DNA from: an uncultured Bacteroidales bacterium
GTDB lineage: Bacteria; Bacteroidota; Bacteroidia; Bacteroidales; Bacteroidaceae
Direction: 5' to 3'
DNA length: 64,000 nucleotides
NCBI GenBank assembly: GCA_902801485.1
Contig: CADCIP010000010.1
Location: 25,465 to 89,464 of the forward strand
The notes under the pieces: model-generated
What the model was told of the DNA's origin: nothing
The model's input: the letters and a program-made list of their open reading frames with translations, nothing else
The model's database searches: none
Shown: piece by piece, positions 1-57,265 of the stretch
Numbering within the stretch: the first letter of the stretch is position 1
Layout: the number at the start of each line of letters is the position of its first letter
Position numbers and translations under genes: made by a program

Positions 1-939
1 CAGAAAATGCAACAGATAAACATCCAGTGTGCGTTGTCCAATATATTGAAGGGCTTTCCCTACGGGATGTTCTGTGGTAAACCGTTTTTTATTATAGCGG
101 AAGAACATTACCACGATAAGTAACAGTGTGTACATGGCTGTGGTGCGGGGCAGGTTGGTCCATGCAAACTTCAGGGCGTGCCATTTGAAAATGTCGGCAC
201 AGCAGACTACAGCCAAGGTTGACACAAGGGGGAAGAACCAAACGCTGTCAAACAGTTTTTGTATTCTATCCCAATACCTGTGTACAATATTGCCCAAAAG
301 GAAGAACTGCGTGAAGCGGATGGTCTGAACGAAACTGGTATAGGAAAAGAACGGGTCCTTGTGGTATGAGAACAGCTTGGGAAGGTACAGTGTTTCGTAT
401 GCGGCGATGGAGAGAAACCAGACGGTAATCCAGAAGACCATCGAAAGTTGAAAGTTGAAAGTTGAGAGTTGAGAGTTTTTTCCTGAAACTTTTTCCTTTA
501 TCTTTTTCAGGTAATGGGCGATGATGCTGATGGTGTAGTAAATGAGGAACATCTGCAATAGAACCCAGGTAAACCAATATCCATCCTTGGTGGGACTCTT
601 TAGGGCATTCAGGAAACCTTCCCAAAAAGCATACTTGGATTTGAAGATGATAAATATACTCAGGAATATAAGGGCTGGTATAATCTGCACATGCAATTTT
701 TTAAGTACCAGAGGGATCGTATTTTTCAGATTCCATACGAAGTTTGCCTTATATGCCAGGAATCCGCTCACAAAAAAGAATAGGGGCATACGGAAGAGCA
801 CCAGAAAGGGTAGGGCTGCACTTGTCTTCTCATTTTCTACAAACCCGAACTGTGCCACATGATACGCCACCACCAGTATCATGGTAAATCCTCGCATGGC
901 ATCCAGCCATTCTATACGCTTTGATTCTTCACTCTTCAT
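1..939 (-). CDS. Acyltransferase family 3 membrane protein (O-acyltransferase). N-terminal 313 codons only; the ORF runs off the left window edge
   Basis: I translated the minus strand from the ATG at 939-937 and found no stop down to base 1. It is absent from the ORF track because it has no in-window stop. The translation MKSEESKRIEWLDAMRGFTMILVVAYHVAQF..FRMPLFFFVSGFLAYK, followed by multiple hydrophobic segments, is typical of Acyl_transf_3 N-termini. Confidence 0.7.
   Translation of the reverse strand, partial: MKSEESKRIEWLDAMRGFTMILVVAYHVAQFGFVENEKTSAALPFLVLFRMPLFFFVSGFLAYKANFVWNLKNTIPLVLKKLHVQIIPALIFLSIFIIFKSKYAFWEGFLNALKSPTKDGYWFTWVLLQMFLIYYTISIIAHYLKKIKEKVSGKNSQLSTFNFQLSMVFWITVWFLSIAAYETLYLPKLFSYHKDPFFSYTSFVQTIRFTQFFLLGNIVHRYWDRIQKLFDSVWFFPLVSTLAVVCCADIFKWHALKFAWTNLPRTTAMYTLLLIVVMFFRYNKKRFTTEHPVGKALQYIGQRTLDVYLLHFL
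443..477. repeat. In-CDS heptamer tandem repeat, GAAAGTT x3 + GAGAGTT x2
   Basis: Five contiguous 7-nt units read directly. On the coding (minus) strand they encode NSQLSTFNFQLS within the acyltransferase. Confidence 0.9.
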
Positions 940-984
940 TCTTCTTTTTAACTAGGGTCTAACGTCTAATGCCTAACGTCTTTC
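924..984. repeat. Short-repeat blocks at a gene junction: A[TC]TCTTC x3 (924-944, overlapping the acyltransferase ATG) and G[TC]CTAA[CT] x4 (957-984, overlapping the 3' end of the 734-aa CDS)
   Basis: Units read directly: attcttc actcttc attcttc, then gtctaac gtctaat gcctaac gtctttc. Confidence 0.85.
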
Positions 985-3170
985 TCTCCCCCAAGGGGGA
1001 GTAGGAGGGGGCTTACCTCCTTCGCGCATTGTTCTACATTATAATATTTCTCCGCTAAGAGTCGTCCCTTGCGCCCCATCTCTTTGGCTTCTTCGGGATG
1101 TGCTGCTATGTATTGGATAGCTCGTTCCCAACCTTCTCTGTCGTAAGGTTCCAGGTAAATACCGCATCCCTCAGCCTCCAGATCCATAGGCATCTGAGGA
1201 TTACGGGTACAGAGGATAGGTTTCCCTAAAGCCAGAGCTTCTACCACGGTGGTTAGTCCCACGGTATAGTTGCTTTGTTCGCAGCAGATACATACGCACT
1301 GACTCTGTGCTACCAGTAAGGCAATTTCGTAAGGCATGAGTCTGTCGCCAAATTGAAGGTTGATATTCTCTTTTATCTCAAGGTCAGCAAATATCCATTC
1401 CAGCTGTTTCTGGGTATAAAGAGTAAGGGGCTGCCCCGTATTATTAAAAGCCTCTGTCAATGTTTTATAGTCCCTCAGCTCTTTTCCTGTAGAGATAAAG
1501 GGGCAAGGGTGCTTGCCGTCGGGTCGCAGGCTATCATAGAATGCCAGATCAGCTCCCCAATGAACCATGCTCATGCGGGCCGGGTCGGCTTTTTCCGATT
1601 TCAAACTGTCCTGTATCAGTTTTTCAGAGAAAAAAATCATGTGGTCCATTCCTTTGTAGAATAGGCGTGCCAAAGTTTCGCGTAAACGACTTTTGGCTTC
1701 TACAATCGGTTGGTGATGCCATACCACAATCCTCTTCCGGTACAGACCTATGGCATGCAACAGTATTATGGGTTCAATTCCACGTGTATGTGTTGCATAC
1801 AGAATGTCGTATTGTTGACGACAAGTAAGAATCTTCCAACTGGCCTTCAGTGTATCCTGTACACGTTTGTATAAATGAATCTGATCATGCCAGATAACTT
1901 CATAGCCGTATTGCTCCAGTTGCAGTGCACCGTACAGAAAGTGGGCAGGAAATTTTCCGTCTTTCCATTCCCGGACAATGCGTGCCGTATCTTGGGTGTG
2001 ATAGAAATATACAGACCCTCTCCATACCTTCCCCTCTAAGGGGAGGCTCTTTCCGCTCAGCCAGAATACCCTTTCGATGTATGGCACCAACAGCGTGCAG
2101 ACGACAAGGACCAGGATGGTCATTGCCAGCATGTCAGGAATGCTCCTTTTGATGTTGTGCTCCATGAGCATCGAAATGTAAACATAGCACATAACCAGGG
2201 GGTAGTGCCCGATATAGTAAACCATGCTGTGCTCCCCGATATAGCAGATGCCTGGTATGCGTCTTACATGTGTGGTCAGCAGGATTCCTGACAGTCCGGT
2301 CAGTGCCAGCATCGTATTCAGCATCACACGCCAGAACGGTCCGATGAAGGTGTTGGTCTTCATTTCGTATTCACCATGCAGGTAGATGTTCACACATACA
2401 AACGCTACGACCAGGATGATGCTGGCAATCAGCCCCTTCTTGTCTTTTATCTTGTCCAATGTTATATGCCATACTTTTCCTAAATAGAAGAAAAAGGCAC
2501 CGCAGAAAACATTGTCCATCATGAAATAGAGAGGATTACCTTGTTTGAAAAGCCAATAGCTCAGCAAGGGGAAGACTAGGATTATCAGATGCAGGTGCCG
2601 GACTTTCTCTATAAAGTGGACTATAATATATGAGGTAAAGAAACAGGGGAGGAACCAGAGCGGACTATTGCCCCATGTAAAGCCTCCCGCCCATATATTG
2701 TAGTTTTGGAAGGAGCGTTCTGTGCCGGGAAATCTCCCGGGGAAGAGCAACATAAAGAACAGACATACACATGCGCTGATGGCAGCCCACGAGAAATAGG
2801 GAATCATCAACCGGCGGAACTTGTCCCAGCAGTAAGTCTTGGAATCACCTTGTACCCCTTTGTTGAAATAACCTGCCTTGAAGAAAAAGAAACTCATCAG
2901 GTAGAAACTCCACTCCATAATTGCCTTCCACCAGTCGGTCTGCCTGAGTGCTGTCTGGCAGACAACGTGCAGCGTTACCATCCTCAGGATGCATAGTCCG
3001 CACAGGATGTCAAAGGCGTGGTTCCGGAGGCCCCCTCCCTTCCTGACCACCTTCGTGAATGGGGATTCGCTCACCTTTGTGGGGCCGGAGCCACACTCAG
3101 TGGCTCCTCTGAAGACCCCAGTCGCCCTTTGGGTGAGGAGTTCTTTTTCTGTTGCTGTTGCTACATTCAT
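966..3170 (-). CDS. Fusion protein: multi-TM acyltransferase-3-like N-half plus GT4/GT1-like glycosyltransferase C-half (734 aa)
   Basis: 734-aa ORF. The N-half has about 10 hydrophobic segments (RNHAFDILCGLCILRMVTLHV..., acyltransferase-like). The C-half is soluble and carries a GT-B-like tail motif (GLTTVVEALALGKPILCT). The ATG overlaps the stop of the upstream flippase gene (ATGA). Confidence 0.65.
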   Translation of the reverse strand: MNVATATEKELLTQRATGVFRGATECGSGPTKVSESPFTKVVRKGGGLRNHAFDILCGLCILRMVTLHVVCQTALRQTDWWKAIMEWSFYLMSFFFFKAGYFNKGVQGDSKTYCWDKFRRLMIPYFSWAAISACVCLFFMLLFPGRFPGTERSFQNYNIWAGGFTWGNSPLWFLPCFFTSYIIVHFIEKVRHLHLIILVFPLLSYWLFKQGNPLYFMMDNVFCGAFFFYLGKVWHITLDKIKDKKGLIASIILVVAFVCVNIYLHGEYEMKTNTFIGPFWRVMLNTMLALTGLSGILLTTHVRRIPGICYIGEHSMVYYIGHYPLVMCYVYISMLMEHNIKRSIPDMLAMTILVLVVCTLLVPYIERVFWLSGKSLPLEGKVWRGSVYFYHTQDTARIVREWKDGKFPAHFLYGALQLEQYGYEVIWHDQIHLYKRVQDTLKASWKILTCRQQYDILYATHTRGIEPIILLHAIGLYRKRIVVWHHQPIVEAKSRLRETLARLFYKGMDHMIFFSEKLIQDSLKSEKADPARMSMVHWGADLAFYDSLRPDGKHPCPFISTGKELRDYKTLTEAFNNTGQPLTLYTQKQLEWIFADLEIKENINLQFGDRLMPYEIALLVAQSQCVCICCEQSNYTVGLTTVVEALALGKPILCTRNPQMPMDLEAEGCGIYLEPYDREGWERAIQYIAAHPEEAKEMGRKGRLLAEKYYNVEQCAKEVSPLLLPLGGEKDVRH
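986..1012 (+). repeat. GC-rich palindromic element copy E1 (CTCCCCC-AA-GGGGGAG-TA-GGAGGGGGC)
   Basis: Perfect 7-bp stem with a 2-nt loop followed by a G-rich tail. It lies inside the last 17 codons of the 734-aa CDS (..SPLLLPLGGEKDVRH). Confidence 0.85.
2015..2049 (-). repeat. GC-rich palindromic element copy E2 (reverse orientation) at the acyltransferase/GT junction
   Basis: The minus strand reads gagCCTCCCCttagaGGGGAAGGtatGGAGAGGGtc. It is translated in frame as SLPLEGKVWRGS around residue 375 of the 734-aa ORF. Confidence 0.8.
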
Positions 3171-4741
3171 TCTTGTGAATCTGGTTTGTTCTTGTGGGAT
3201 TTCTTCCCTCCCCTAAAGGGGAAGTTGGAGGGGGCTAAATATTCTATGCTTTCTCTCATAATCTTGGCACCGCTAATCCACATAATACCGGCATACAAGG
3301 TTGCTGCCATAACAATCCTGCTCAGCAGTCTTAGCCACATGATGGGTATTCCGCCTGTTGCCCACCAGGTAAAGGAATGAACGGCCAGTGTAAACACCAG
3401 GAAGGGCAGGATGTCCTTCAGTGTTTCCCTCCATCGTAAGCCTATCAGGCGTTTTGCGCACCACTGCCAGATGCCCAGCCATGCAACGTTCAGCCCGATA
3501 AAGTAGAGTACCATCGGCATCAGTCCCTTGGGATACAGAGGAATCAGACCCGCCCAAACGGCCAGACATTGCCCGATGGTGCACGCCAGGTTGATGTTAC
3601 TCTTGCCACGACTGATGGTGAGGTTGCTGTACAGCGTCGTAATGGGAACAACGGCACCGTGTATGCACAGCAGTGCTAATATGAGACCGCTTTCAGCCCA
3701 CTTTTCCTTTCCCACTAGCAGAATAAAGTCCTGTGCAATAATCGCCAATCCGAACATGGCGGGGAAGGTGACGAAGCAGGTGAAGCGCATCATCTTGCGG
3801 AATACGCTTCTGTATCGTTCGGTATCCTCGTTTACTTGGGCCAAAGTGGGCTGGGCCACGCTTGTAACCATACCGTTGATGGTGTTCGAAGCCATGTCGT
3901 CCCATTTCCTTGCTTGTGTATAGATACCTGCAACATGGTTGCTGATATACTTTTTCAGTAAAACGGAAAACGCTTCCCTGTTCAAAATGTTAAAGATGTT
4001 GGTAATCATTAACTTGCTGCTGAATCCGAACATCTGCCAGGCAGGAGCAAGGATAGCTGATAGTTGATAGTTGATAGTTGATAGTTGGGAACCATGGGGT
4101 GAGTACCCAGGTCGCTTCTGGCGACCTGTTCTGAAGGGGGCTGTCGGTCTCCAAGGCGAGAAGTACCATGCCATGGTCTGTACTACTACTACAAAACTGA
4201 CGGCCTGGATGACAAGACCCCAATAGTGGAATCCGTTACATGCTAAGGTAACGCCAATGATGCCGGAAATCAGAACGCCGCAGATGTTGCAGATGCTGGT
4301 TTCCTTTACCATCAGATGCCCAAAGAGATAGGCTCGTTGGGCGGTTCCTATACCAGAGAAAAGAAAGCCCAGGAATATTACTCTCGACAGTACCACATAG
4401 TCAGGGTCGTTATAGAAGTCTGCTATCAGCGGGGCACAGAACCACAATATCAGGTAGAGCGTTGCGCTCACCAGTATGTTGAACCAGAAGACGGCATTGT
4501 ATTCCTCGTGCGTAGGTTCCTTCTTGTTGCAGAGGGCAGCAATGAAACCGCTCTCCTGAAGGGCGTTTGCCAAGGCTGCAAAGATGTTTAGCGCAGCAAA
4601 CTTGCCATAATCGTCGGCGTCAAGTTCGTACATCAGTATAAGTCCGAACATGGCGCTAAACAACTGCATGATTCCGTTCGACAAACCTCCCCAGATAAGT
4701 CCTTTTGCCGTACGCTCTTTCAGAGTATTTTCAACATTCAT
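3167..4741 (-). CDS. Wzx-like polysaccharide/O-antigen flippase (MOP/PST family), 524 aa
   Basis: The N-terminus is MNVENTLKERTAKGLIWGGLSNGIMQLFSAMFGLILMYELDADDYGKF. With about 12 or more hydrophobic segments, it resembles Polysacc_synt-type flippases. It sits beside acyltransferase and GT genes. Confidence 0.75.
   Translation of the reverse strand: MNVENTLKERTAKGLIWGGLSNGIMQLFSAMFGLILMYELDADDYGKFAALNIFAALANALQESGFIAALCNKKEPTHEEYNAVFWFNILVSATLYLILWFCAPLIADFYNDPDYVVLSRVIFLGFLFSGIGTAQRAYLFGHLMVKETSICNICGVLISGIIGVTLACNGFHYWGLVIQAVSFVVVVQTMAWYFSPWRPTAPFRTGRQKRPGYSPHGSQLSTINYQLSAILAPAWQMFGFSSKLMITNIFNILNREAFSVLLKKYISNHVAGIYTQARKWDDMASNTINGMVTSVAQPTLAQVNEDTERYRSVFRKMMRFTCFVTFPAMFGLAIIAQDFILLVGKEKWAESGLILALLCIHGAVVPITTLYSNLTISRGKSNINLACTIGQCLAVWAGLIPLYPKGLMPMVLYFIGLNVAWLGIWQWCAKRLIGLRWRETLKDILPFLVFTLAVHSFTWWATGGIPIMWLRLLSRIVMAATLYAGIMWISGAKIMRESIEYLAPSNFPFRGGKKSHKNKPDSQE
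3203..3235 (+). repeat. GC-rich palindromic element copy E3
   Basis: cttCCCTCCCCtaaaGGGGAAGttGGAGGGGGC. It lies in the 3' end of the flippase CDS and encodes ..APSNFPFRGGKK.. of its tail. Confidence 0.8.
4052..4086. repeat. In-CDS heptamer tandem repeat, GATAGCT x1 + GATAGTT x4
   Basis: Four perfect units and one variant read directly. They encode SQLSTINYQLSAI in the flippase. Confidence 0.9.
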
Positions 4742-4848
4742 AGCACAAAAGTACAGACTTTTTAAAGAAAATCATGCATCTGTTTTACTGAAATCTCTTT
4801 TTTGCTGTATGATTGGTTCTTTTTTTTGGAAATTCGGCGAAATATTTC

Positions 4849-4856
4849 TACTTTTG
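4849..4856 (+). promoter_or_regulatory. Bacteroidetes-type -7 box (TACTTTTG, TAnnTTTG consensus) upstream of the V-ATPase D gene
   Basis: Exact match to TAnnTTTG about 40 nt upstream of the ATG at 4897, in a divergent intergenic region. Confidence 0.45.
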
Positions 4857-4896
4857 TGCCGATATTTGATTAATAGAGGCTAACTCAAAGTAATAG

Positions 4897-5520
4897 ATGG
4901 CAATAAAGTTTCAATATAATAAGACTTCTCTACAGCAGATCGAGAAGAATCTGAAGATGCGTCAGCGTACCTTGCCTATCATTAAAAGCAAGGAGACGGC
5001 TTTGCGTCTTGAGGTGAAGAAATGCAAGGAGGAGGCCGATGAACTTGAACAAAAACTGCAAAGTCAGATCGCTGGCTATGAGCGTATGTATGCGTTGTGG
5101 GGTGAGTTCGATACTTCGCTGGTAAGTCTGAAGGATGTGCAACTGAATGTAAAGAAGATAGCGGGTGTACGTGTTCCTATCCTCGAAAACATCGAGTTGG
5201 AGGTTCGTCCTTTCGGATTGTTCAGCGCTCCCAAATGGTATTTCGATGGAATCAACCTCCTTCAGGGGCTGGCAAAGACTGCTGTTGAACGGGAGTTCGT
5301 TTTCGCAAAGCTTCACCTGTTGGAGCATGCCCGTAAGAAGACAACCCAGAAAGTGAACCTTTTCGAGAAGGTGCAGATTCCGGGCTTCCAGGAGGCTGTC
5401 CGTAAGATCAAGCGTTTCATGGAGGACGAGGAGAACTTGTCTAAGTCGTCACAGAAGATTCTGAAATCTTTGCAGGAAAAGCGCCGTGCTGAGGACGAAG
5501 AAAAGGAGGTTGCCGTATGA
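4897..5520 (+). CDS. ntpD: V-type ATP synthase subunit D
   Basis: 207-aa coiled-coil protein beginning MAIKFQYNKTSLQQIEKNLKMRQRTLPIIKSKETALRLEV. Its stop overlaps the start of the subunit I gene (ATGA). Confidence 0.85.
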   Translation: MAIKFQYNKTSLQQIEKNLKMRQRTLPIIKSKETALRLEVKKCKEEADELEQKLQSQIAGYERMYALWGEFDTSLVSLKDVQLNVKKIAGVRVPILENIELEVRPFGLFSAPKWYFDGINLLQGLAKTAVEREFVFAKLHLLEHARKKTTQKVNLFEKVQIPGFQEAVRKIKRFMEDEENLSKSSQKILKSLQEKRRAEDEEKEVAV

Positions 5521-7385
5521 TTGAGAAAATGAAAAAGTTCACCTTCTTGGTGACAGAAAAAGAATATGATTCTTTCATCGCCTCACTGCGTGAACTGGGT
5601 GTAGTACATGTTCAGCAGTTACAGAAAGGTGCCACCAGCGAGGAGTTGCAAGACGGTATGGCGCTGGAGCAACGTTACAAGTCGGTACTTCAGGCTTTGG
5701 AGATTTATACCAAGACCTATAAGGAAATAACAGTTCCTCAGACTATCCGGGAAAATGCCTTACCCGAGGCATTACTGAAGCATGTCGAAGATTTGCAGGC
5801 CGAGGAGTTGAATCTGTTGCATAATATCGATGCGTTGCAGAAGAATATCAGTATGCTGGAGCCCTGGGGCGACTTCGACCCTGCCAGTGTGAAACACCTT
5901 TCCGATACAAGTGCCCAGCAGATTCATTTCTACCGTTGCAGTACCAAGTTCTTCAAGCACGAATGGGTAGATGCCTATTTTGCTACGCCTATCAACGAGC
6001 AGGACAAAAGTACATATTTCATCACCTTCAGCGAGGAAACGCCCGACATACAGGCTGAGCAGATTTTCCTTCCTGCAGGAACATTAAGCGGTTATATCGC
6101 CGAGCGCAAAGCAGAAGAGGAGAAACTGAATGCCGTTCGTGCTGAACTGTTGTATATCAATGCCAACCTGCGTCCCGAATTAGAGAAGGGTCTTGTAAAG
6201 GTGCAGAACGATATTTCTCTCAGTAAGGTTCATCTTAGCGACGAGCGTATTGCCGGTGATATGGTTCGTCTGATGATGGGCTGGGTACGTGCCGACAAGA
6301 CAGAAGCCCTTGTGGAGTATCTCGAGAAGGACAGGATTTATTACGAGATGGAAGACCCTGCATACGAGGATGATGTGCCCATTCAGATAACAAACGGTAG
6401 TTACACAAGTCTCTTCGAGCCCATCTTGCGTATGTATTCTCTGCCCAACTACCACGATATCGACCCCTCAATCTTCTTTGCTCCTTTCTTCATGCTGTTC
6501 TTTGGCTTGTGCTTAGGCGACGGCGGCTATGGCCTGCTGGTTCTCCTGGGTGGAGCTTATCTGGCATGGAAGGGTTCAGATGATATGAAGAGCTATGGAC
6601 GTCTGGGTATCTGGCTAGGTTTGGCAACCACCATCTGTGGCCTCTTCACCGGAACCGTATTCGGAATCGACCTGACGAAGCAGGATTGGGCATTGTTGGC
6701 CCCTGTCAAGCCATACTTTATCAACGATAACGGTATTGGTCCCATCTTCGGTTACTCGCCCATGATGGTATTATCTGTAATCATCGGTTTGGTTCAGGTT
6801 TTGCTTGGTATGGTGCTGAAGGCTTGCAAAGCCTGGAGAAACTATGGTTTCGGCTATTCCATCGGTACATTCAGTTGGGTATTTGCCCTGCTTTCGCTCA
6901 TAGCCCTATATGGCTTGCCTGCCTGTAACGTTGTTTTGCCGGAACCTGTTCGGTATGTGCTCATGGGAATTATCGGCATCAGTGTCATTGGTATCTTCCT
7001 GTACAATAATCCATCAGCATACAAGAACCCCATTACCGGACCGTTGCTTAATATCGGTGGCGGCGTATGGGCTACATATAATATGTCAACGGGTTTGTTG
7101 GGCGACTTGCTCAGTTACATCCGTCTCTTTGCGCTCGGACTGACAGGTGGTGTGTTGGGCGGTGTGTTCAATTCACTTGCTTTCGACCTCACCAGCAGTT
7201 TGCCTTGGTTTATCCGTTGGCTGCCGATGGTCCTCATCCTGCTGGCAGGTCATGGTATCACCTTCGCCCTGAGTATGATCAGTGCTTTCGTGCATCCCAT
7301 GCGACTCACTTTCGTGGAGTTCTTCAAGAATGCTAACTTCGAGGGTGGTGGCAAGGAGTACACTCCGTTCAGGACGGTAAAGTGA
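5517..7385 (+). CDS. ntpI: V-type ATP synthase subunit I (a-subunit, stator/proton channel)
   Basis: 622 aa. It has a soluble N-half and a multi-TM C-half containing LSYIRLFALGL, the conserved Arg helix of a-subunits. It lies between the D and K genes. Confidence 0.9.
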   Translation: MIEKMKKFTFLVTEKEYDSFIASLRELGVVHVQQLQKGATSEELQDGMALEQRYKSVLQALEIYTKTYKEITVPQTIRENALPEALLKHVEDLQAEELNLLHNIDALQKNISMLEPWGDFDPASVKHLSDTSAQQIHFYRCSTKFFKHEWVDAYFATPINEQDKSTYFITFSEETPDIQAEQIFLPAGTLSGYIAERKAEEEKLNAVRAELLYINANLRPELEKGLVKVQNDISLSKVHLSDERIAGDMVRLMMGWVRADKTEALVEYLEKDRIYYEMEDPAYEDDVPIQITNGSYTSLFEPILRMYSLPNYHDIDPSIFFAPFFMLFFGLCLGDGGYGLLVLLGGAYLAWKGSDDMKSYGRLGIWLGLATTICGLFTGTVFGIDLTKQDWALLAPVKPYFINDNGIGPIFGYSPMMVLSVIIGLVQVLLGMVLKACKAWRNYGFGYSIGTFSWVFALLSLIALYGLPACNVVLPEPVRYVLMGIIGISVIGIFLYNNPSAYKNPITGPLLNIGGGVWATYNMSTGLLGDLLSYIRLFALGLTGGVLGGVFNSLAFDLTSSLPWFIRWLPMVLILLAGHGITFALSMISAFVHPMRLTFVEFFKNANFEGGGKEYTPFRTVK

Positions 7386-7392
7386 ATAACGA

Positions 7393-7445
7393 AACCGCTA
7401 ATCGCTAACCGCTAACCGCTAACCCGTAAACAGTAAACCGTAAAC
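7393..7445. repeat. Heptamer blocks AA[CT]CGCT x4, then [CA]GTAAAC x3
   Basis: Read directly, immediately after the ntpI stop codon. Confidence 0.9.
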
Positions 7446-7594
7446 AAAATAAATATTAATCCCTCATAAGACATCGTTCGTTTTTCGTAACGAAGCTGGC
7501 TAACCAAAATAGTAATTCTTTATATAAATAAGGTTGCAAAGCCCGGTTCGGCAAAGCCCAAATTATAAATGATGAATGATGGATTATGAATTAA

Positions 7595-8204: not shown

Positions 8205-8459
8205 GTTTACAGTTTACGGTTTACAGTTTACGGTTTACAGTTTACCGTTTACCGTTTACAGTTCCGCTAACCGCTAATCGCTAGCCGCTAATCGCTAATC
8301 GCTAACCTCTAGCCGCTAACCTACCGCTAACCTCTAACCGCTAACCTCTAACCGCTAACCTCTAACCGCTAATCGCTAACCTCTAATCGCTAATCGCTAA
8401 TCGCTAACCGCTAATCGCTAATCGCTAACCGCTAACCTCTAACCGCTAATCGCTATACC
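8205..8459. repeat. About 255-bp heptamer array: [CAG]GTTTAC x8, then about 28 units of C[GT]CTAA[CT]/CCTCTAA
   Basis: Read directly. It fills the space between the convergent ntpK and outer membrane protein genes. Confidence 0.95.
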
Positions 8460-13135: not shown

Positions 13136-14389
13136 ATGAAAAAAGAACTTTTAAACCAAGCTTATTCCGTAGCCCAGCAGCGCTACGCAGAAATCGGAGT
13201 TGATACCGAGAAAGTATTGAAACAGATGCAGGACTTCCACCTCTCCCTTCATTGCTGGCAGGCCGACGATGTGAAAGGCTTTGAAGTACAGGCCGGTGCC
13301 CTCAGTGGTGGCATCCAGAGTACGGGCGATTTCCCTGGTGCAGCTCGTAACATCGACGAATTGCGTTCGGATATCCTCAAGGCCATGAGCCTCATTCCCG
13401 GTAATCACCGTCTGAACCTTCACGAAATCTATGGCGATTTCCAGGGTAAGGTTGTTGACCGTGACGAGGTGACCGTAGAATTCTTCCAGAGTTGGATCGA
13501 CTGGGCCAAGGCCAACAACACCAAGTTGGATTTCAACAGCACCAGCTTCTCGCACCCCAAGAGCGGCAACCTTACGCTGGCCAATCCCGATAAGGGAATC
13601 CGCGATTTCTGGATCGAGCACACCAAGCGTTGCCGTGACATTGCCAATGCCATGGGCGAGGCACAGAATGACCCCTGTATCATGAACCTTTGGGTACACG
13701 ACGGCTGTAAGGACCAGAGTGTGAACCACATGATGTACCGTCATTTCCTCAAGGAGTCTCTCGATGAGATCTTCCAGAAGAAACAGCCCATGATGAAGGA
13801 TTGTCTCGAAGGTAAGGTCTTCGGTATCGGTCTGGAGAGTTTTACCGTCGGATCGCATGACTTCTATACAGCTTATTGTTCCAAGAACAATGTAATCCAG
13901 ACTATCGATACCGGTCATTATCATCCTACAGAGAGTCCGGCCGACAAGGTCAGTGCCCTTCTCGATTTCATTCCCGAGCTCATGTTGCATGTCAGCCGTC
14001 CCATCCGTTGGGATTCCGACCACGTGACCATCATGGACGATCCCACCCAGGAACTCTTCTCCGAGATCGTACGTGCCGGAGCCCTCAACCGTGTTCACTA
14101 TGGCCTCGACTTCTTCGATGGCAGCATTAACCGTATCGGTGCTTATGTTATTGGTTCCCGCAGTGCCCAGAAGTGTATGCTCCGCGCTTTGTTAGAGCCC
14201 ACCCAGACTATCAGCCGGTACGAGTTGGCAGGCGAAGGCTATAAGGTACTTGCCCTCTTGGAGGAAGCAAAGGCCCTTCCCTGGCAGGCTGTTTACGATG
14301 AGTTCTGCCTTCGCAACAATGTTCCCGTAGGTCAGGACTTCATAAAGGATATAGATAATTATGTTGCAGATACAATCAGCAAACGGTAA
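13136..14389 (+). CDS. rhaA: L-rhamnose isomerase
   Basis: 417 aa. The N-terminus, AQQRYAEIGVDTEKVLKQMQDFHLSLHCWQADDVKGFE, closely parallels E. coli RhaA (..SMHCWQGDDVSGFE). Confidence 0.95.
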   Translation: MKKELLNQAYSVAQQRYAEIGVDTEKVLKQMQDFHLSLHCWQADDVKGFEVQAGALSGGIQSTGDFPGAARNIDELRSDILKAMSLIPGNHRLNLHEIYGDFQGKVVDRDEVTVEFFQSWIDWAKANNTKLDFNSTSFSHPKSGNLTLANPDKGIRDFWIEHTKRCRDIANAMGEAQNDPCIMNLWVHDGCKDQSVNHMMYRHFLKESLDEIFQKKQPMMKDCLEGKVFGIGLESFTVGSHDFYTAYCSKNNVIQTIDTGHYHPTESPADKVSALLDFIPELMLHVSRPIRWDSDHVTIMDDPTQELFSEIVRAGALNRVHYGLDFFDGSINRIGAYVIGSRSAQKCMLRALLEPTQTISRYELAGEGYKVLALLEEAKALPWQAVYDEFCLRNNVPVGQDFIKDIDNYVADTISKR

Positions 14390-14480
14390 ACGGTAAACAG
14401 TAAACAGTAAACCGTAAACCGTAAACAGTAAACTTAAAAGAAGAGTCTCTAACCTTTCAATTCTCAATTTTCAATTCTCA
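14384..14480. repeat. C[GAC]GTAAA x7 (14384-14432) and [CT]T[TC]TCAA x4 (14454-14480). Together they make up most of the rhaA-rhaT spacer
   Basis: Read directly. The rhaA TAA stop is supplied by the first unit, and the last unit abuts the rhaT ATG. Confidence 0.9.
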
Positions 14481-15524
14481 ATGATACTCATCGGATTACT
14501 TATCATCGCCATAGGCGCTTTTTGTCAGTCCAGTAGCTATGTGCCCATCAACAAGATCAAGTCCTGGAGTTGGGAAAGCTATTGGTTGGTTCAGGGCATC
14601 TTTGCCTGGCTCATCCTGCCATTCTTAGGTGCGTTACTGGCTGTCCCTGATGGACATAGCCTCTGTGAACTCTTCACCTCAGAGAATAGCTTTAATATTT
14701 GTATGACGATTCAGTTCGGTATTCTCTGGGGCATAGGCGGATTAACTTTTGGTTTGAGCATGCGCTACTTGGGGGTAGCCTTGGGACAGAGTATTGCCCT
14801 GGGAACCTGTGCTGCCCTTGGAACCATCATGGGACCTGTCTTCCTCAGTTGGTTCTTCCCCGAGCAGGATCCGCTTTCCAAGCTTACTTTCTCCGTCCTT
14901 GTCGGTGTGGCTGTCACGCTCATCGGTATTGCCATCATCGGCATTGCCGGCAATATGAAAGCAAAGGCCCTTTCTAATTCCCTCCCTCAAGGGGAGGGCC
15001 AGGGAGGGGCAGGGGATTTCAATTTCCCCAAGGGTCTCTGCATAGCACTCTTGGCAGGCTTCATGAGCGGATGTTTCAATGTGGGTCTGACCTTTGGAGC
15101 CGATATCAACTTCGGCGAGCTTACCGACCCCATGTTCCGTGCTCTCCCTGCCACGTTGCTCGTAACTATGGGCGGTTTCGTTACCAATGCCGTGTATTGC
15201 CTATACCAGAACCATAAGAACCGGACATGGTCGGATTACAGCAATAAATCCGTTTGGGGCAACAACATTCTGTTCTGCCTCCTGGCCGGTGCCCTGTGGT
15301 ACAGCCAGTTCTTCGGCTTGTCGTTGGGTCAGGGATTCCTGCGGGAGTCACCCGAGCTCATCACCTTCTCCTTCTGCATCCTCATGGCATTGAACGTAAC
15401 GTTCAGTAATGTCTGGGGCATCATACTAAAGGAATGGAAGGGCTGCAGTCGTAAGACCATCACCGTTCTGCTCATAGGCATAGCCATCCTCATCCTCAGT
15501 TCCTTTATTCCACAGTTAGTTTAA
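14481..15524 (+). CDS. rhaT: L-rhamnose/proton symporter
   Basis: 347 aa, about 10 TM segments. INKIKSWSWESYWLVQGIFAWLILPF parallels E. coli RhaT (KKVKKWSWETMW..). It sits within the rha operon. Confidence 0.9.
   Translation: MILIGLLIIAIGAFCQSSSYVPINKIKSWSWESYWLVQGIFAWLILPFLGALLAVPDGHSLCELFTSENSFNICMTIQFGILWGIGGLTFGLSMRYLGVALGQSIALGTCAALGTIMGPVFLSWFFPEQDPLSKLTFSVLVGVAVTLIGIAIIGIAGNMKAKALSNSLPQGEGQGGAGDFNFPKGLCIALLAGFMSGCFNVGLTFGADINFGELTDPMFRALPATLLVTMGGFVTNAVYCLYQNHKNRTWSDYSNKSVWGNNILFCLLAGALWYSQFFGLSLGQGFLRESPELITFSFCILMALNVTFSNVWGIILKEWKGCSRKTITVLLIGIAILILSSFIPQLV
14978..15015 (+). repeat. GC-rich palindromic element copy E4 inside rhaT. It also contains a G-quadruplex motif
   Basis: ttCCCTCCCTcaaGGGGAGGGccaGGGAGGGGCaGGGG, translated as SLPQGEGQGGAGD. 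There are five G3+ tracts with loops of 1-3 nt on the coding strand. Confidence 0.85.
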
Positions 15525-15579
15525 CCCATAAGCCCCATAGGTCCTATAGGTCCCATAAGCCCCATAAGTCTTATAAACA
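15525..15579. repeat. Six 9-nt units of the CCCATAAGC family. They constitute the entire rhaT-rhaD spacer
   Basis: cccataagc cccataggt cctataggt cccataagc cccataagt cttataaac, plus one further base (a) before the ATG. Confidence 0.95.
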
Positions 15580-16419: not shown

Positions 16420-16467
16420 GACGTTAACGTCAACGTCAACGTTTTTAATTATCAATTATCAATTATC
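16420..16467. repeat. AACGT[CT] hexamer x4 (palindromic, followed by T5), then AATTATC x3
   Basis: Read directly between the convergent rhaD and yfhO-like genes. GACGTTAACGTC is a perfect palindrome, so it may act as a terminator. Confidence 0.85.
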
Positions 16468-16469
16468 AA

Positions 16470-19007
<2,538 letters not shown>

Positions 19008-19012: not shown

Positions 19013-19081
19013 CAACGATAACGTTAACGTTAACGATAACTTTTTTTCTTTGTCTTTAACCTTTAACCTATAACCTATAAC
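19013..19081. repeat. CAACGATAACGTTAACGTTAACGATAACT module (19013-19041), then C[TC][TA]TAAC x4 (19054-19081), directly upstream of the yfhO-like ATG
   Basis: Read directly. The 29-nt module is identical to 57108-57136. Confidence 0.9.
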
Positions 19082-19179
19082 CGTTATATTCTTCAAGAAC
19101 AAGAAAGTGAGAAGCGCAACATTAGATGAGCACTCCTCACTTCATAGGATTTCACTTTTAGAAAAGTTACCGCCCTTAA

Positions 19180-19210
19180 CTCTCCCCCAAAGGGGGAGCA
19201 GGGAGGGGGC
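19180..19210 (+). repeat. GC-rich palindromic element copy E5, 9 nt downstream of the rpsO stop
   Basis: CTCTCCCCCaaaGGGGGAGcaGGGAGGGGGC. Confidence 0.85.
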
Positions 19211-19218
19211 CACGTTTT

Positions 19219-19488
19219 TTACTTACGCAGACCCAGAGCCTTGACGATAGCACGATAGCGGTTGATGTCGCGTGACTTCAAGTAGTTGAGGAGTGCACGA
19301 CGCTTACCTACGAGACCGGTCAGGGCACGCTCTGTGCTGTGGTCCTTACGGTTCTGCTTCATGTGCTCAGTCAGATGGCTGATACGGAATGAAAACAAAG
19401 CAATCTGGCTCTCAGCGCTACCAGTGTCGGTAGTACCCTTACCAAACTTGCCGAAGATCTCTTCTTTTTTTGCTGAATCCAAATACAT
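19219..19488 (-). CDS. rpsO: 30S ribosomal protein S15
   Basis: 89 aa: MYLDSAKKEEIFGKFGKGTTDTGSAESQIALFSFRISHLTEHMKQNRKDHSTERALTGLVGKRRALLNYLK. This is a canonical S15. Confidence 0.97.
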   Translation of the reverse strand: MYLDSAKKEEIFGKFGKGTTDTGSAESQIALFSFRISHLTEHMKQNRKDHSTERALTGLVGKRRALLNYLKSRDINRYRAIVKALGLRK

Positions 19489-42778: not shown

Positions 42779-42786
42779 CAAAGTTA
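42779..42786 (-). promoter_or_regulatory. Proximal -7 box TAACTTTG for the 7536-aa gene, 27 nt upstream of its ATG. It is overlapped by the palindrome ACTTTGC-gga-GCAAAGT (42768-42784)
   Basis: Exact TAnnTTTG match on the minus strand, with TTTG 19 nt further upstream. Confidence 0.5.
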
Positions 42787-42965
42787 CGTATAAGCGAGAG
42801 AATAACAAAATAAATCGAAGATTTTTTTTTGTTTTTCCGAGCGAAAGTAAGTTAGAACGCAGTTCAATGTTACGCATAAGTGAGAGAATAACCAAAAGAA
42901 ACGGAAGTTTTTTTTGGTTTTTCCGAGCGAAAGTAAGTTAGAACGTAGTTCAAAGTTACGCAAAT
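42779..42965 (-). repeat. 86-bp direct repeat, 2.2 copies, each carrying a -33 TTTG / -7 TAAC[TA]TTG promoter-like pair
   Basis: The reverse complement of the -7 box (caaagtta / caatgtta / caaagtta) occurs at 42779, 42865 and 42951, an exact 86-nt period. The units are about 85 percent identical by eye. Confidence 0.85.
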
Positions 42966-43766: not shown

Positions 43767-46700
43767 TTACTTAATATACAACTTCTTCTTATTAACAATG
43801 TACGTGCCTGGTGCTGTGACAGGTGTGATGACCGTCTTACCCGGCTCAAGCGTGTAAGATGCCAGCAATGCACCTGTAGCATTGACAATGTGGATGGTCT
43901 TAGCCGTCTTCAGGCCAGATACGGTAACAATGCTTCTGCCACGAGCGTAAATCTCTATTCTACCGGTATCTCTGCTCTGCAGATCCTTGTCAGGCTCAAT
44001 GGTACCACTGGCAACATTACTGAACTCAATGTAGTTAACCTCCCTTACACCATTGGATGGTACTGTAGTAAAGTACGGACGGAAGGCCTCTACGGTAACG
44101 GCATCACCCTCAGTAGGTACCTTATTATACCTGTCACCATCTTCATTGAGCGCCCATGCTGTTGTACCTGCAGCCAGCGTCTGGTTCATGTAGCTGGGAC
44201 GGAAGATATAACCGTTCTTTGTTGCTTCAGCCTCTGCCTCTAAGATTTCGTCGTCGCTCACGCGGATAGTGATAGCCGGATTAGAAGCGAAGGTAATAGT
44301 CTGCTTATCCAGTTTCGCGGGCTCCTTTGCGGTGTTCAAAGGTATGAAGCTACCGCTTAGGTCGAACTCGTAGTAGGTTGAACCTGGGAAGCCAATCAGG
44401 TATGGCGTAGCCTGGGTGAGCAACGGGTATCCGTTGTATTCACGTTTCTTCTCGTAATAAGTCCTATACAAATCCGTGTTCGCATCTTTCTGGTCATGAC
44501 CACCTTGAATTCCCTTGTAGTAGTAATCCCACAGGAAAGTATTCGTTACATCCTTCTTATTGTTGTTATCAGGATCTGGGTAGGTAAAGTTGGCAACCTT
44601 GACATTATTGTTTGCGTCCTTATCCGTGATTTTTTCTAACTTACGCAGCCAGTATTCATGACCTGTGTCACTGCCCTTATAGAAGTGCGAAATTTCACCC
44701 TTCTGCTGTGTTGTAACCAGTTCAGCGGCGAACGGCAGACTGATGCCTTGCCAGCCCTTCGTCAGGGCATCCTGCGTCAGGGTTACAAACTCGTCGTCGT
44801 CCGGTGTACGTTGGTACCACATGCGCTTATCGCTGGCAAATTTGTATGAGATAGGCGCATTAAAGTCGTTCTTATCTACCAGGAGGTGGTCGTTCACAGA
44901 CTCATACTTGATACCGTCGTTCGCAGGATTTGCCATCTTCTGAACCCAGTGACCTTGTATAGCATACATATTAGCTGCCACGGTGCGATAGCCCTCAGTA
45001 CTTTCTGCGTAAGTTGGGTCAGCAAGAGCGGCGCTCACGGTTGTAGCGGTCTTTCCATCGGCAAATGTGTATGCCAACAGGTTCTTTGTCAGGTCGATAT
45101 TATTGAATCCAGTCAGACCATCATCGTCCAGCAATGGAGCATAGAACTTAGTGCTGGTATTGTTTGGCCCGAACTTTAACTCATAAGCATTCTTGGTCCC
45201 ATTAGCGGCATACATATCATTGTAGCCAGAGAAGTCAATGGCTGTCATATCCTTATGTGCATCGTGGGCCGTTACATTGGCAGCTATCTGTTCTGCTGTC
45301 AACTTCTCGCTTTGTGTAAAGATGGCGTATGGGTTAAAGTAAGCTACACCCATATCTTTGCTGCGGAAGTATGCCGGAGCACGATATACACGGTTACCAT
45401 ATTCGTTCGTCAGCAAGCGGCTGTTGCTACGGATGATAGGTGCAGGCAATTCCTGATGACTGAGACCCGTAACCTGGTTGTAGTTCAGTGCCTGACCGAA
45501 GTACAGATAGTCGTCTGGCCAGATGGGTGAGAAGTAAACAACATCAATATCCTGGTTGTTTTCATCCTGCTCCGTCACAATCCTCATACGTATGTCGGTT
45601 TCATCGGGGATGGTACCGTTGGCATAACGGTAGTCACCATCCTTGAAGCGCTGCTCTACATAACCACGTCTTCTTGCAACATCTTCAGTTCCAATGGGAT
45701 AGTAAGCGTAATTATAGGGATAGTCACCTGTGCTCATTTTTTCGGGCAGAGTGCCATCAGCATTGGGCTGGAGGTAGTTATATTCTACCTTAGTTCCAGT
45801 CCATGACTTGTTGTTGTCATAATAACGCTTGCGCAAGTAGAATCCGTTCAGGTTGTAAGCTACTTCACCGTTGAAGAACGACTGAGCAGGCATTGGGCGG
45901 GCAATACCTCTACCATCATCAGTGTCTTTATACGTATTGGTATTTAGACTGTAGCAGTTTTCAATCTGTGTACCACTGCCCACTGTTTGACCAATAATAG
46001 CCTTAGTGGTGTTAACTGGCGTTCCTGTAGTCATTACCCAGCAGTTCTCGGCATAACCCTCATCTGCGTAATCTGCAACACCACCGCCTGTGAATGAACC
46101 TGTAACACCTAAGTTATATACATTACCACAGAGTTTGCTGAAGAGGGAACTGGTAAGGCCGGTTATCTTGTGACCATCACCATGCAAGGTACCTTCGAAG
46201 CAAATATCATTTGCAGGGTTATCATCGTCATCATTCTTGCCGATAGGTGTCCATGGGTCATCTTCATATACTGCTGGATTCTCGGTTGTAGCAGCTGTTT
46301 TTAGTTTCTTGCTATGGTCAATATCCGTACGCAGGATGAATTGCAACTTGTTAGCTCCCTTCACACGACTCTCCATTGGAACGTGTCCTGCCAGAGTGCC
46401 AGTTCCGCCTATTGGATCAGGTTTACCATCATGGTCTTCGTCTTTTTGTTCTATCAAGCTTAAATCAAACAATCGCTTCAACTCATCCAGACCGTTCTTT
46501 GTGGTTTGGGGATCGTTGGTTGTGTAATCATTGATGTATATCTTAGGCTCACGCTTTACACCACTATTATCAATGTGCATGTGGTGTGTCTTGTTGGCAT
46601 CAGACATCACCTCTGCCAAGTCGTGGTAGTTGGCCACGCTTACAGGCACATGGTTAGAGTAGGTACGGCCCAGATAGGTCTTTGCGTAGTAAGCCACATA

Positions 46701-49700
46701 CCAATCATCCTGATACCAGTAGAGCGGGTCGTACTGCGGGTCGTAGTCGATACCGTTGACGTGACTTTCTGCATCTCCAGGTGTCTCAAACAACTCCCAT
46801 CCACCACCGGTGATTTCGTATGCACCAGGTGTTACGTCAGGCTCCATCATACTGATATATTCGCCTGGTATAATCATGCTGGGCTGGATGATATCTTCTA
46901 CGGTAGGTACACCACTCTTGAACTGCAGGTGGATATTAACCACATGACGTTCACTGATAGGAGTTACATTACCACTAGCATCACTCTCCTCATAGTCGTA
47001 TTGGTAAATTACGGTGATAATCTTCTCCTTAGAGAGATTATAGATATCAGAGTTTCGGGCCACATAGAACGTACTGGTCTCTGTGGGAGATATGCCATGG
47101 ATGGTGAAATTCTTCTGGTCGTTGGGGAGATTTGAATAGCGATAGAAGGTGAGGCCATGATCGGTGTCATCGGTGCCAATGATTGCTCCTACAGGTACAG
47201 TTGCCCCTGCGCCATAACTATTATTGTTACTACCCTTGATACTCTTTACTGCATTGTCATTATTTCCTATATTATAGCTATTTTTGCAATAATAGTAGTC
47301 TTTGCCTTCATCTTCACTATCAAAATGTAATACAGTAACTTTAGCTTTCTCCTCGTCTGTCAGGTTATTATAAGCCTCTTCAGTAATTTTATCTCCAACG
47401 TTTTTGTTTTCAAATGCAGTGTTGACTACATAGTAGTCGCCAGCTTCCTCCACATGGATTGTTTCATAATTCGATTTTTCAACATCAGTCAGATTATTGT
47501 AGCCTTTGGTTGTGACGTTTATGTCGGCGGTACTGATGATAGTACCTATAGTGACCTCATCGCCGTTATAATAATTTTTACCCTCACGATCTCTAACGGG
47601 ATTCTTATCTATAGTATAATTCTCTCGGCAATAATAATAAGTTCCAGTTTCACTAAATGGAATAATATCTATTTCTTCCGGATTTTTCACAATTTCACCA
47701 TCCGTTTCCTGTAGGCTGACAAACGTTGCATTGTCAATGGTTGTACCTACTGCATAAACTGTATTGCCTATCTGGAAGGTTTTATTGACGATGTAATATT
47801 CGCCAGCTGTTTTAACATCAATAGCAGCATAGTGACGCTGTTCATTGTTCAACGACTCATAAACTTCTCGGCTCAGTTCGTCTCCCTTTTTAATTTCATC
47901 ATCGGTTACGATTGTCGGCACATTATTTTCTACACGTTTGATGCTAATGTCATATCCTAATTCCTTGGTTTCGTTGCTATTGTATGTGGCTGTATAGTCG
48001 ATTGGAGTTTCCAAAGAGTAAGTGGCAGGATTAGCTTCTGCTCCATCCGGAGTACCTGCTGCGCTGTCATACTGGTACTTTTGACCCTCTTCGTGTACTA
48101 TGTTACCCTCTTCATCCTTGCTATAAAGTGAGTCAATGAGAAGGTCAAGAGCATCATAGTTGAAATCGAACTTCTGACGGTCTGTTTCAGACATTGAACT
48201 CCAAGCCTCCAAGCCACGATAGTTCTTACCTGATTCATAGTAGTTTCCGCCAAAGAGTCCTTCCTTGGTACAATAGTAGGCGGGAACAATCTTCTTTGTT
48301 ATTTCCTCTCTCAGAGTCACTAACGATGTCAGTGACTTCTTTTTATCAGTTTCTATTTCTAAGGCCTTGATTTGTTCTGGCGTTAACTCCCCGGCATCAT
48401 CCATAATCTTATTCATGTCAGCTTTAACTGAGTTAACATAACCGGTCATCTCACCGTAAGTCATCTTACTGTTCATGTAGATGAATTCGTCCTTACTCAA
48501 TTTGATGGTACTGGTACAGATGTATGCAGGTTCTGCCTTTCCTTCGTATTCAGTATTGGTTGTGGCTTTCGTCTTAGAAATAGTTGAACCAATATTCTGA
48601 TGGTGGGTTTCGCCAGTCTCATCGTCCTTAATGCTAACCTGCTGAGTTACAATGTAGGCTTCTTCGAAGTTGGCTTGTTCACCATCCTCTGGAGTTACTT
48701 TTTTGTCAATTTGACTATTGTTGTTGACATCCTCTCCCGAATCAAGTGTGCCATTGTTGTTGACATCTTCATTGATATTCTTCACATACGTGTCATAGAC
48801 ATCCGAAGAGATGAGTTCACCAACCTTATAGCTAATCTGTCCAAGAACGCTACCAGTTCCAGATTTAAGATGGTAGGTGGGGCCGTCGTGATAGAGCAAC
48901 TTATCTTCGGTAGATTTTGTTTCGAATGTAGAGACAGAAATCTTCTTGTCCTCGTTTCCAGTGGGTGTAATCTTTGTATACCAGGTATTCCATAATTCAG
49001 GGTTATTTACCTTATAGGTCAGGATATAACCACGGTTGTGACTCACATTATTAGATGAACGGAAGATATAATCTTCATCCGCATTTTTCTTGTTTGCATC
49101 CTGAATAGTATTGCCTTCGACATCTTTGTAAGTATGCGTTCCGTAATTTGCAAGCTCATTTGGTGTCAGAACTATGGTCCCGGCAGGATGAACCACAGGG
49201 TCATCATCTATACAAACATCTACGCAATTGACGTAAGTTTCCGGTTTAAACAATTCTTTTTCAGAAGCACTCAGCAGGTTGTAGTCCCAATAGCTGATAG
49301 GATCGTTCAGATAGTAGACCTTGTCGTTAATAACAATTTTTTTGCCACTTTCCAGTTTTACACCGGGAGATGCATAGTATGCATAGTAGTTAGGCTGTAC
49401 ATTAATTAAATGCATCTTTCCGTGTGACGCAGCAGCAATGGTCAATGGGATGTCTATGGTCTCACTGAAAGCATTGGGATTACCCGTGTAGGCTGAGATG
49501 TACTGGTCGTATACATATATCTGACCCTTGATGAACCAGTAATGGGCAGGTACAAAGTCTGTGCTTAGATAACGACCACTGACATTGTAGCAGTCATCAA
49601 TAATAGTCTGGGTGCTGTGTACAAAGTTACCTGAGGTCTCCCATTCATACTTGTTATTATCACTAGTATCGTATTGATAGTCCCACTTAGTAACGGCACC

Positions 49701-57227: not shown

Positions 57228-57228
57228 T

Positions 57229-57259
57229 TTCCCTCCCCCAAGGGGGAGCCGGAGGGGGC
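57229..57259 (+). repeat. GC-rich palindromic element copy E6, 7 nt downstream of the 435-aa gene stop
   Basis: ttCCCTCCCCCaaGGGGGAGccGGAGGGGGC. Confidence 0.85.
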
Positions 57260-57265
57260 TTTTAA

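Follow-up and report, generated by a model that had tools for sequence, protein, structure and literature searches.

A three-block repeat copy encodes the linker of a predicted acyltransferase-glycosyltransferase fusion in an uncultured Bacteroidales bacterium and probably reached a junction that was already fused

The window studied here is a stretch of 64,000 nucleotides (nt) of DNA from an uncultured Bacteroidales bacterium (assembly GCA_902801485.1, contig CADCIP010000010.1, positions 25,465 to 89,464). Its minus strand carries an open reading frame (ORF) of 734 amino acids (aa) in which a membrane acyltransferase half (AT3) is joined to a soluble glycosyltransferase half (GT), as a preliminary description made from the letters of the window had recognized. 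The linker between the two halves is encoded by one copy, named E2, of a short genomic repeat. The features of the ORF and of its junction are the following.

966 to 3170, minus strand: fused AT3-GT ORF, 734 aa, with an Acyl_transf_3 membrane domain and a GT4 glycosyltransferase
2088 to 3023, minus strand: Acyl_transf_3 (PF01757) domain, aa 50-361, Pfam E 3.7e-19
2013 to 2048, minus strand: linker S375-S386, SLPLEGKVWRGS, wholly coded by repeat copy E2 (AGCCTCCCCTTAGAGGGGAAGGTATGGAGAGGGTCT)
2040 to 2046, minus strand: E2 pyrimidine arm CCTCCCC, read from the sequence
2027 to 2034, minus strand: E2 purine arm GGGGAAGG, which pairs with the pyrimidine arm bar one extra A
2016 to 2023, minus strand: E2 third block GGAGAGGG, a mirror image of the purine arm with two deviating positions
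996 to 2012, minus strand: GT4 glycosyltransferase half, aa 387-725, from Pfam, alignment and structure model

In the AlphaFold model, the AT3 helices span H52-H365 and the opening GT beta-strand corresponds to aa 386-390. GT4-type Pfam matches (Glyco_transf_4, Glycos_transf_1, Glyco_trans_1_2) cover aa 432-718, and the order PF01757 then PF00534/PF13439 on one polypeptide is conserved among relatives. The model has a mean predicted local distance difference test score (pLDDT) of 78.8, with two well-folded halves. Its largest segments with pLDDT <50 are the three repeat-coded stretches, at aa 1-48 (N-terminal tail), 377-383 (linker) and 728-734 (C-terminal tail); two short AT3 loops, aa 81-83 and 269-274, also fall below 50. 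A PDB sequence search with the window protein gave weak GT4 matches alone (6kih, 7qsg). Since no in-frame ATG, GTG or TTG occurs between aa 363 and 470 of the ORF, the GT half can be produced solely within the fusion. The identical 734-aa protein is recorded in 53 member sequences and 5 contigs; therefore the open frame is no one-off assembly error. Its domains and its model lead us to predict a single bifunctional enzyme, with a multi-pass AT3 acyltransferase and a cytoplasmic GT4 glycosyltransferase. OafA/OafB and OatA are AT3-domain fusion proteins in which AT3 is followed by an SGNH domain. Like them, the window protein links an Acyl_transf_3 domain to a soluble carbohydrate-active domain within a surface-glycan locus, but its partner is a GT4 enzyme of the cytoplasmic GT-B fold instead of a periplasmic SGNH esterase. 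To our knowledge the AT3-GT family is uncharacterised, and its records carry only the names "acyltransferase family protein" or "glycosyltransferase".

The E2-coded linker follows ..VFWLSGK, the last AT3 motif, and precedes VYFYHTQ, the first motif of the GT half. The earlier assignment of 12 linking residues to E2 is borne out, with the span moved from 2015-2049 to 2013-2048, and E2 is open in two of the three forward frames. A near-twin of E2 lies at positions 4717-4752 of a related locus, L005 (compared loci and proteins are numbered L and P). The two are identical at 33/36 positions, are read in the same frame (SLPIEGEVWRGS) and have the subfamily box GGAGAGGGTCT in common; the site of the twin is the GT inter-domain loop of a protein of clade B, sister to the window's clade A, and not a linker. 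Because E2 has an extra A in its arm and a box off the mirror, while the stem of the twin is a perfect 7 bp, E2 seems to be a decayed unit. The coding sequence of the linker is a genomic repeat copy inside an intact enzyme. The linker would have no catalytic role, its residues acting as a neutral spacer.

The repeat is not a plain palindrome. As first described, a 7-nt pyrimidine arm does pair with a purine arm, imperfectly in E2, but a third, mirror-like purine box follows, so that the layout is pyrimidine arm, loop, purine arm, spacer and mirror purine box. Good copies read CTCCCCC-AA(A)-GGGGGAG-N2-4-GGAGGGGGC. The third block is a mirror of the purine arm and not a direct copy of it. Indeed, in 659 kb of related loci, not chosen for repeat content, an exact mirror follows a perfect 7-bp pyrimidine/purine hairpin in 14 cases and a direct repeat in 0; the counts become 190 vs 19 once loci from among the listed matches of the genome scan described below are added. 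The box co-varies with the arm (GGGGGAG with GAGGGGG, GGGGAGGG with GGGAGGGG, GGAGGGG with GGGGAGG). TTA and TTG are among the commonest spacers in these loci, listed scan matches included, and the copy at 57230 has CCG.

A relaxed three-block pattern, run over the whole window and compared with shuffled sequence, finds exactly six sites where 0.01 are expected, and a strict pattern finds 3 where 0 are expected. The five copies other than E2 are as follows.

986 to 1012, plus strand: copy E1 (CTCCCCC AA GGGGGAG TA GGAGGGGGC), whose minus-strand reading gives the C-terminal tail ..PLLLPLGGEKDVRH and stop of the AT3-GT ORF
about 3207 to 3236, plus strand: copy E3, read within an extended C-terminal tail of the upstream flippase gene, before the ATGA overlap
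14979 to 15012, plus strand: copy inside the rhaT ORF (E4 of the preliminary description), in frame as SLPQGEGQGGAG, with arm GGGGAGGG and mirror box GGGAGGGG
19182 to 19212, plus strand: intergenic copy, 7 nt past the stop of rpsO (19219 to 19488, minus strand)
57230 to 57262, plus strand: intergenic copy, directly 3' of an ORF at 57266 to 58573 (minus strand), beside heptamer arrays

Four of the six copies share one orientation and mark the 3' end of a minus-strand gene, two in intergenic DNA and two as translated C-terminal tails. AT3-GT relatives without E1 end in ..EVAQLLK and a stop, and the flippase tail of about 19 aa that contains E3 is found in clade A flippases and is absent in L011, L025 and L005. 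The other two copies, E2 and the RhaT copy, lie in the middle of ORFs, in frame and in the opposite orientation. The RhaT-family ORF (14481 to 15524, plus strand; PF06379, E 1e-45) and the linker use the same reading frame of the element, as had been noted at the outset. A scan of the whole window at the Rfam gathering threshold gave no family.

Beyond the window, a 19-base pattern was searched in a genome collection of 596 Gb with one genome per species, giving at least 120 loci. Among the matches listed, most belong to Bacteroidota, including rumen and gut Prevotella-type metagenome-assembled genomes, Mucilaginibacter and Chitinophagaceae, and 53% go on with GC past the imposed pattern. By our own arithmetic about 90 chance matches are expected in 596 Gb, and isolated matches, for example those in GC-rich non-Bacteroidota, are therefore uninterpretable. 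Units also form inverted doublets, at L011:2176-2275 (flippase central loop) and L011:4686-4765 (GT inter-domain loop), both in coding sequence; a looser pair, at L005:4616-4752, combines two different subtypes. Judging from their peptides, P0007, P0021, P0025, P0058 and P0061 would have doublet-type linkers of about 30 aa. The copies presumably propagate by some copying or recombination process.

About 60 full-length homologues of the window protein, each with both Pfam domains and 56-88% identical to it, came from a protein search. In the 58 fused ones the halves are conserved (AT3 52-91%, GT 63-88% identity) and the linker is hypervariable in sequence and in length (7-33 aa), with more than 25 different linker sequences. 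At the DNA level, the linkers of 14 fused loci are for the most part made of three-block units; these occur in both orientations, alone or in tandem, and complete or cut short. Several linkers have the same length, exactly 36 nt, yet unrelated sequences. The bootstraps recover clade A as monophyletic in 100% of cases. All its sampled members are fused, and their linkers are of at least six types: SLPLEGKVWRGS, SPKPSVEGEKKR, SLPQPLPRRGEQGDKGGGRT, doublet-like linkers of 31-33 aa, TLTQQPARREGKKR and SLPPPFTNRGGCRPV. E2 is carried by P0001 (the window protein), P0003 and P0033 only, and in the last two it stands downstream of another element, in tandem. The fused relatives without E2 include the SPKPSVEGEKKR group, the SLPQPLPRRG... 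groups and the TLTQQPARREGKKR group. The linker site of L001/P0002 was considered as an empty site and set aside, as it appears to be a 15-nt deletion remnant of E2.

In other relatives the two halves are separate genes, stop and start lying at the junction, as would be expected from the two-gene origin first proposed. Three loci of clade B, L022, L023 and L024, have AT3 (about 54% identical to the window protein) and GT (68-73%) as two intact adjacent genes. Their boundaries range from a 4-nt overlap to a 10-nt gap, precisely at the junction: L022 reads ..WLSGRWKK and stop, TGA-A-ATG, then MTVYFYHTQ; L023 reads ..WLSGRWQTTGKDK and stop, with an ATGA overlap; L024 reads ..WLSGRYKK and stop, a 10-nt gap, then ATG. 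No repeat is present at any of these three boundaries, and all three share an A-rich, native-looking start context, AAATGAC, and an M-T-[VI] start. Stand-alone GT homologues from metagenomes agree: 67/67 start M-[KRTH]-[VIL]-Y-[FY]-Y-H-T exactly at the junction residue, which confirms that the GT half of the window protein begins at a GT N-terminus. At a more distant locus AT3 (46%), flippase and GT (50%) are encoded by three genes, and in all outgroups the GT is stand-alone. A further clade B locus, L025 (L025:3040-3100), is without the AT3 half; its GT is 67% identical and starts at a GTG 3 bases past the flippase stop. These comparisons support the descent of the AT3-GT ORF from two adjacent operon genes. 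Two other candidates for a separate state were rejected. In L009/L010 an AT3 lies 24 nt upstream of a stand-alone GT, but its BLASTP E value to the window AT3 is 0.06. The 427-aa "GT only" record P0066 begins at an internal Met of a frame, L011:3161-5281, that is an intact 707-aa fusion.

A few fused loci can be compared with separate genes more closely. In L212 (clade B), a perfect 36-nt unit, CCCCTCTCC-GA-GGAGAGGGG-TCT-GGGGTGAGG, follows a TGG codon shared with L023, where the same codon is followed by 26 nt of tail, stop and start. The step between L212 and L023 is a replacement and no simple insertion. The linker of L213 (P0048) resembles a split intergenic sequence minus the stop, and L213 is the commonest partner of L022, with about 55% bootstrap. 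Linkers of the type ...EKKR/VYFY in clade A keep KK like the C-terminus of the separate AT3 (..KK and stop), with elements upstream. This is a weak hint, the KK match being short, that the ..KKR/VYFY fusion may have arisen by a small deletion, independently of repeats. The last residue of many fused linkers is T, as encoded by the second codon of the stand-alone GT.

In neighbour-joining trees with 200 bootstraps, the split loci are nested among the fused ones, and "all fused monophyletic" and "split monophyletic" are each recovered in 0/200 bootstraps. L023 groups with one fused group with 82-94% support, and the AT3 and GT trees disagree on its place. The nesting implies several fusions, or fissions, or junction alleles that move by recombination. 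Since the separate genes share the AAATGAC context and fused linkers have retained the T, we favour the split as the older state.

The preliminary description had proposed that insertion of the element into a short intergenic gap, or a deletion mediated by it, fused the two genes. That step is not supported: clade A relatives without E2 also encode a single fused protein, the very observation it had named as refuting, and hence E2 probably did not make the fusion. The account that we prefer, to which we assign a probability of about 0.68, is that adjacent genes fused first and that E2 later entered the linker or replaced part of it. AT3 and GT would have started as adjacent operon genes, stop and start overlapping or at most 10 nt apart, and the enzyme would belong to a three-gene glycan cassette of a Prevotella-like gut bacterium. 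In the window lineage the AT3-GT fusion would precede E2, which, as a slightly decayed single repeat unit, would have entered an existing linker or replaced part of it, and would now be translated as 12 neutral linker residues. The AT3/GT junction itself would be a hot spot of repeat gain, loss and replacement and of switches between fused and split states. We infer the order, fusion and then E2, from the distribution of linkers over the tree.

Several points weigh against this account. The site in P0002, the nearest relative when AT3 halves are compared, cannot be counted as a clean empty one. Repeats account for most of the fused linkers, as would also be expected if they had caused the fusions. 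As no split allele was sampled in clade A, "fused before E2" rests on parsimony on the neighbour-joining tree; separate fusions of each linker type from unsampled split alleles could make E2 the fuser of its own sub-lineage. Recombination between alleles is likely at this junction. As for the repeat itself, the RNA folding energies of the six copies lie between z +0.25 and -1.9 relative to composition-matched shuffles, with z -0.4 for E2 (ViennaRNA, which models Watson-Crick and wobble pairs only), and hairpin stability alone is therefore no evidence. The layout corresponds to intramolecular purine-motif triplex geometry, which makes the repeat a candidate triplex former as far as layout alone can tell. 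No RAYT-like (REP-associated tyrosine transposase) or other transposase was found in 1.55 Mb of fetched loci from 212 sources, where all ORFs were scanned for the HUH...Y motif, with one irrelevant match.

Among the other explanations, the best placed gives the repeats themselves the active part. Triplex-type repeats might repeatedly fuse operon neighbours in Prevotella-like genomes by replacing a near-abutting stop and start with a disordered linker, which we regard as possible, at clearly lower confidence. The AT3/GT boundary would then have fused several independent times, in clade A and in several clade B lineages, and possibly re-split, a history that we can put forward only tentatively. 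Most fused linkers consist of such repeats and the family favours gene 3' ends, but a disordered linker may also simply tolerate their landing.

It is also conceivable, albeit unlikely, that the whole family descends from a fused ancestor, with the split loci and the GT-only L025 as products of secondary fission or deletion and the repeats as passengers. The nested position of the split loci, with both monophyly tests at 0/200, speaks for it, and so does L025, which shows a clean AT3 loss with a GTG start left behind. However, fission must make both a stop and a start at the right place, and the splits share AAATGAC and M-T-[VI]; many fused linkers moreover retain the T of the stand-alone second codon, and all outgroups have a stand-alone GT.

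Still less probable is the original proposal that E2 insertion, or a deletion that it provoked, removed the stop and start in the AT3-GT gap and thereby created the fusion of the window lineage. It draws on the gap of -4 to +10 nt in split relatives; on the preference of the family for gene 3' ends and short gaps, E1 and E3 standing at the other two cassette boundaries and being read into tails; on the two open forward frames of E2; and on the perfect 36-nt element of L212, exactly at the position of the L023 stop and start. Nevertheless, clade A proteins are all fused whatever their linker, no more than 3-4 of them have E2, two of these (P0003 and P0033) in tandem with another element, and the KK of the ...EKKR/VYFY linkers suggests, weakly, a small deletion.

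That there is no copied element, the linker being a Pro/Gly/Ser-rich low-complexity spacer with convergent G/C runs, is very improbable. The sequences are short and of low complexity, their folding z-scores are unremarkable and many chance matches to the scan pattern are expected; but the window holds six copies against 0.01 expected, E2 is nearly identical to a copy at another site, intergenic copies have the same three-block layout, the mirror box co-varies with the arm, and more than half of the scan matches listed continue with GC outside the pattern. Finally, an assembly or sequencing artefact or a decaying pseudogene can practically be dismissed: G/C homopolymer runs are error-prone, but the same protein recurs in 53 member sequences and 5 contigs, 58 fused homologues conserve both halves, and both are confidently folded in the AlphaFold model.

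With regard to known systems, the closest in layout are the intrastrand triplex motifs TMECO (earlier BoxC) of E. coli, Enterobacter and cyanobacteria, and the closest in behaviour are Rickettsia palindromic elements (RPE) and intragenic repetitive extragenic palindromes (REP), a placing made by analogy. TMECO follow the pattern CCCTCNCCC-N3-6-GGGNGAGGG-N3-GGGNGAGGG, have second loops TTA or CCG, occasional inverted pairs and no linked transposase, are "always intergenic" in E. coli K-12, and lie at loci unusually variable between strains (Holder et al., 2015, PMC4666352). The repeat described here likewise has three consecutive blocks, one C-rich and two G-rich, separated by a loop and then by a 3-nt loop, with second-loop types TTA and CCG, stems conserved over loops, occasional inverted pairs and no associated transposase. 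The intrastrand triplex (ITx) criteria allow 6-15 nt per stem, 1-6 nt per loop and no more than 1 mismatch. By these, the copies at 986, 14979, 19182 and 57230 fit exactly, as do many copies in related loci; E2 has arm pairing with one extra A and a box two positions off the mirror. The hypervariable AT3-GT junction recalls the variable TMECO loci, and a hot spot at this place fits, by analogy, the local instability reported for these motifs (PMC4666352). In contrast, stems here have 7-8 nt vs 9 nt, the host belongs to Bacteroidales, which the main text of PMC4666352 does not mention, 2/6 copies are mid-ORF and 2/6 are read as ORF tails, and copies adjoin heptamer arrays. The likeness is one of sequence layout, and a triplex is here predicted only.

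RPE and intragenic REPs insert in frame and leave genes intact, as is the case here. Such an insertion lengthens the protein by 10-30 residues at a surface or linker position; dimers occur, and some genes have two insertions (PMC10969869; Di Nocera et al., 2013, PMC3733652). With a length of about 100-150 bp, RPE-1 encodes a conserved peptide (PMC10969869), whereas the present unit has about 27-36 nt, no conserved peptide and three purine/pyrimidine-asymmetric blocks, and differs in size and layout from the published descriptions. REPs and their doublets, REPINs, are mobilised by RAYT tyrosine transposases, a Bacteroidetes subclass of which, 2.6, has "atypical secondary structures" (PMC3116915, PMC6006769). 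The likeness to REP/REPIN lies in short hairpin repeats, mostly just 3' of genes, in many copies, as singlets and inverted doublets. Unlike in REP/REPIN-RAYT systems, no conserved 5' tetranucleotide is present, neither GTAG nor CGTC being common to the copies at either hairpin foot, and the 1.55 Mb of fetched loci hold no RAYT. A link to RAYT subclass 2.6 is only a lead, by analogy.

The repeat family normally lies just 3' of genes and in very short gene gaps, and it is tolerated in frame at a disordered tail, loop or linker. In the fused ORFs examined, strict units occur only in the N-terminal tail, the AT3-GT linker, the GT inter-domain loop between the Rossmann halves and the C-terminal tail, and none lies in the folded AT3 or GT bodies. 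The flippase central loop has heptamer repeats in the window and the inverted unit doublet in L011. Insertion in frame, an intact and conserved host ORF and a permissive site hold for the copies in the AT3-GT and flippase ORFs. The N-terminal tail of the window protein carries a different repeat.

3045 to 3125, minus strand: 27-aa insert A16-V42, a different dispersed repeat with hairpin GGAGCCAC..GTGGCTCC, inside the aa 1-48 segment of pLDDT <50

The same insert repeat is present in L001, L002, L012 and L021, and two more copies lie in an unrelated locus, L112.

AT3-GT is the middle gene of a three-gene cassette made up of a flippase, AT3-GT and a second AT3, the flippase stop overlapping the AT3-GT start as ATGA at 3167-3170.

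3167 to 4741, minus strand: Wzx-type flippase (Polysacc_synt_3), the upstream cassette gene
1 to 939, minus strand: second Acyl_transf_3 gene (AT3b), which extends past the window start

The cassette (window 1-7385; also in L001 and L002) sits inside a V-type ATPase operon, on the opposite strand, in the gap between D-I-K and A-B. A PF05635 gene (23S_rRNA_IVP, a four-helix bundle) at L001:13181-13546 lies among the V-ATPase genes and is not in the syntenic L002.

Other repeats are abundant in the window. Tandem arrays of 7-nt units number about twenty; the unit sequence varies between arrays, and most of them are intergenic. They include 443-477, 4052-4087, 7393-7446, 8205-8455, 14377-14433, 16447-16472, 17686-17717, 19054-19086, 56982-57014, 57156-57228, 58473-58499 and 58633-58691. 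Some are read in frame, in AT3b (..NSQLSTFNFQLS..), in the flippase loop (..QLSTINYQLS..) and in a YfhO-like ORF. Both in the window and in the Prevotella-type scan loci listed, these arrays often adjoin a triplex-type repeat on its pyrimidine-arm side. Arrays of 9-nt units (CCCATAAGC and variants) are intergenic at 15525-15568, 57025-57060 and 59746-59804. Two giant minus-strand ORFs, 20142-42752 (7536 aa) and 43767-57110 (4447 aa), are packed with short degenerate repeats, of the ..VYGGGG.. type on the coding strand, and dominate the direct-repeat families of the window; an 86-nt unit is repeated 2.1 times at 42779-42962, directly upstream of the start of the 7536-aa ORF.

The locus presents a protein linker coded by a genomic repeat in an enzyme that is kept intact, at a gene boundary caught in several states, as separate genes, as overlapping genes and as fusions with many linkers. 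It extends the intrastrand-triplex (BoxC/TMECO) type of repeat, as judged by layout, to Bacteroidales, where, unlike in E. coli, it is tolerated in frame. Tails and linkers coded by such repeats can also distort gene calls, as in the 427-aa GT record that stands for an intact 707-aa frame. If repeats cause fusions, the locus would make testable how multi-domain proteins arise from operon neighbours and, if this were true, a repeat-driven route to domain fusion would still be active in gut bacteria.

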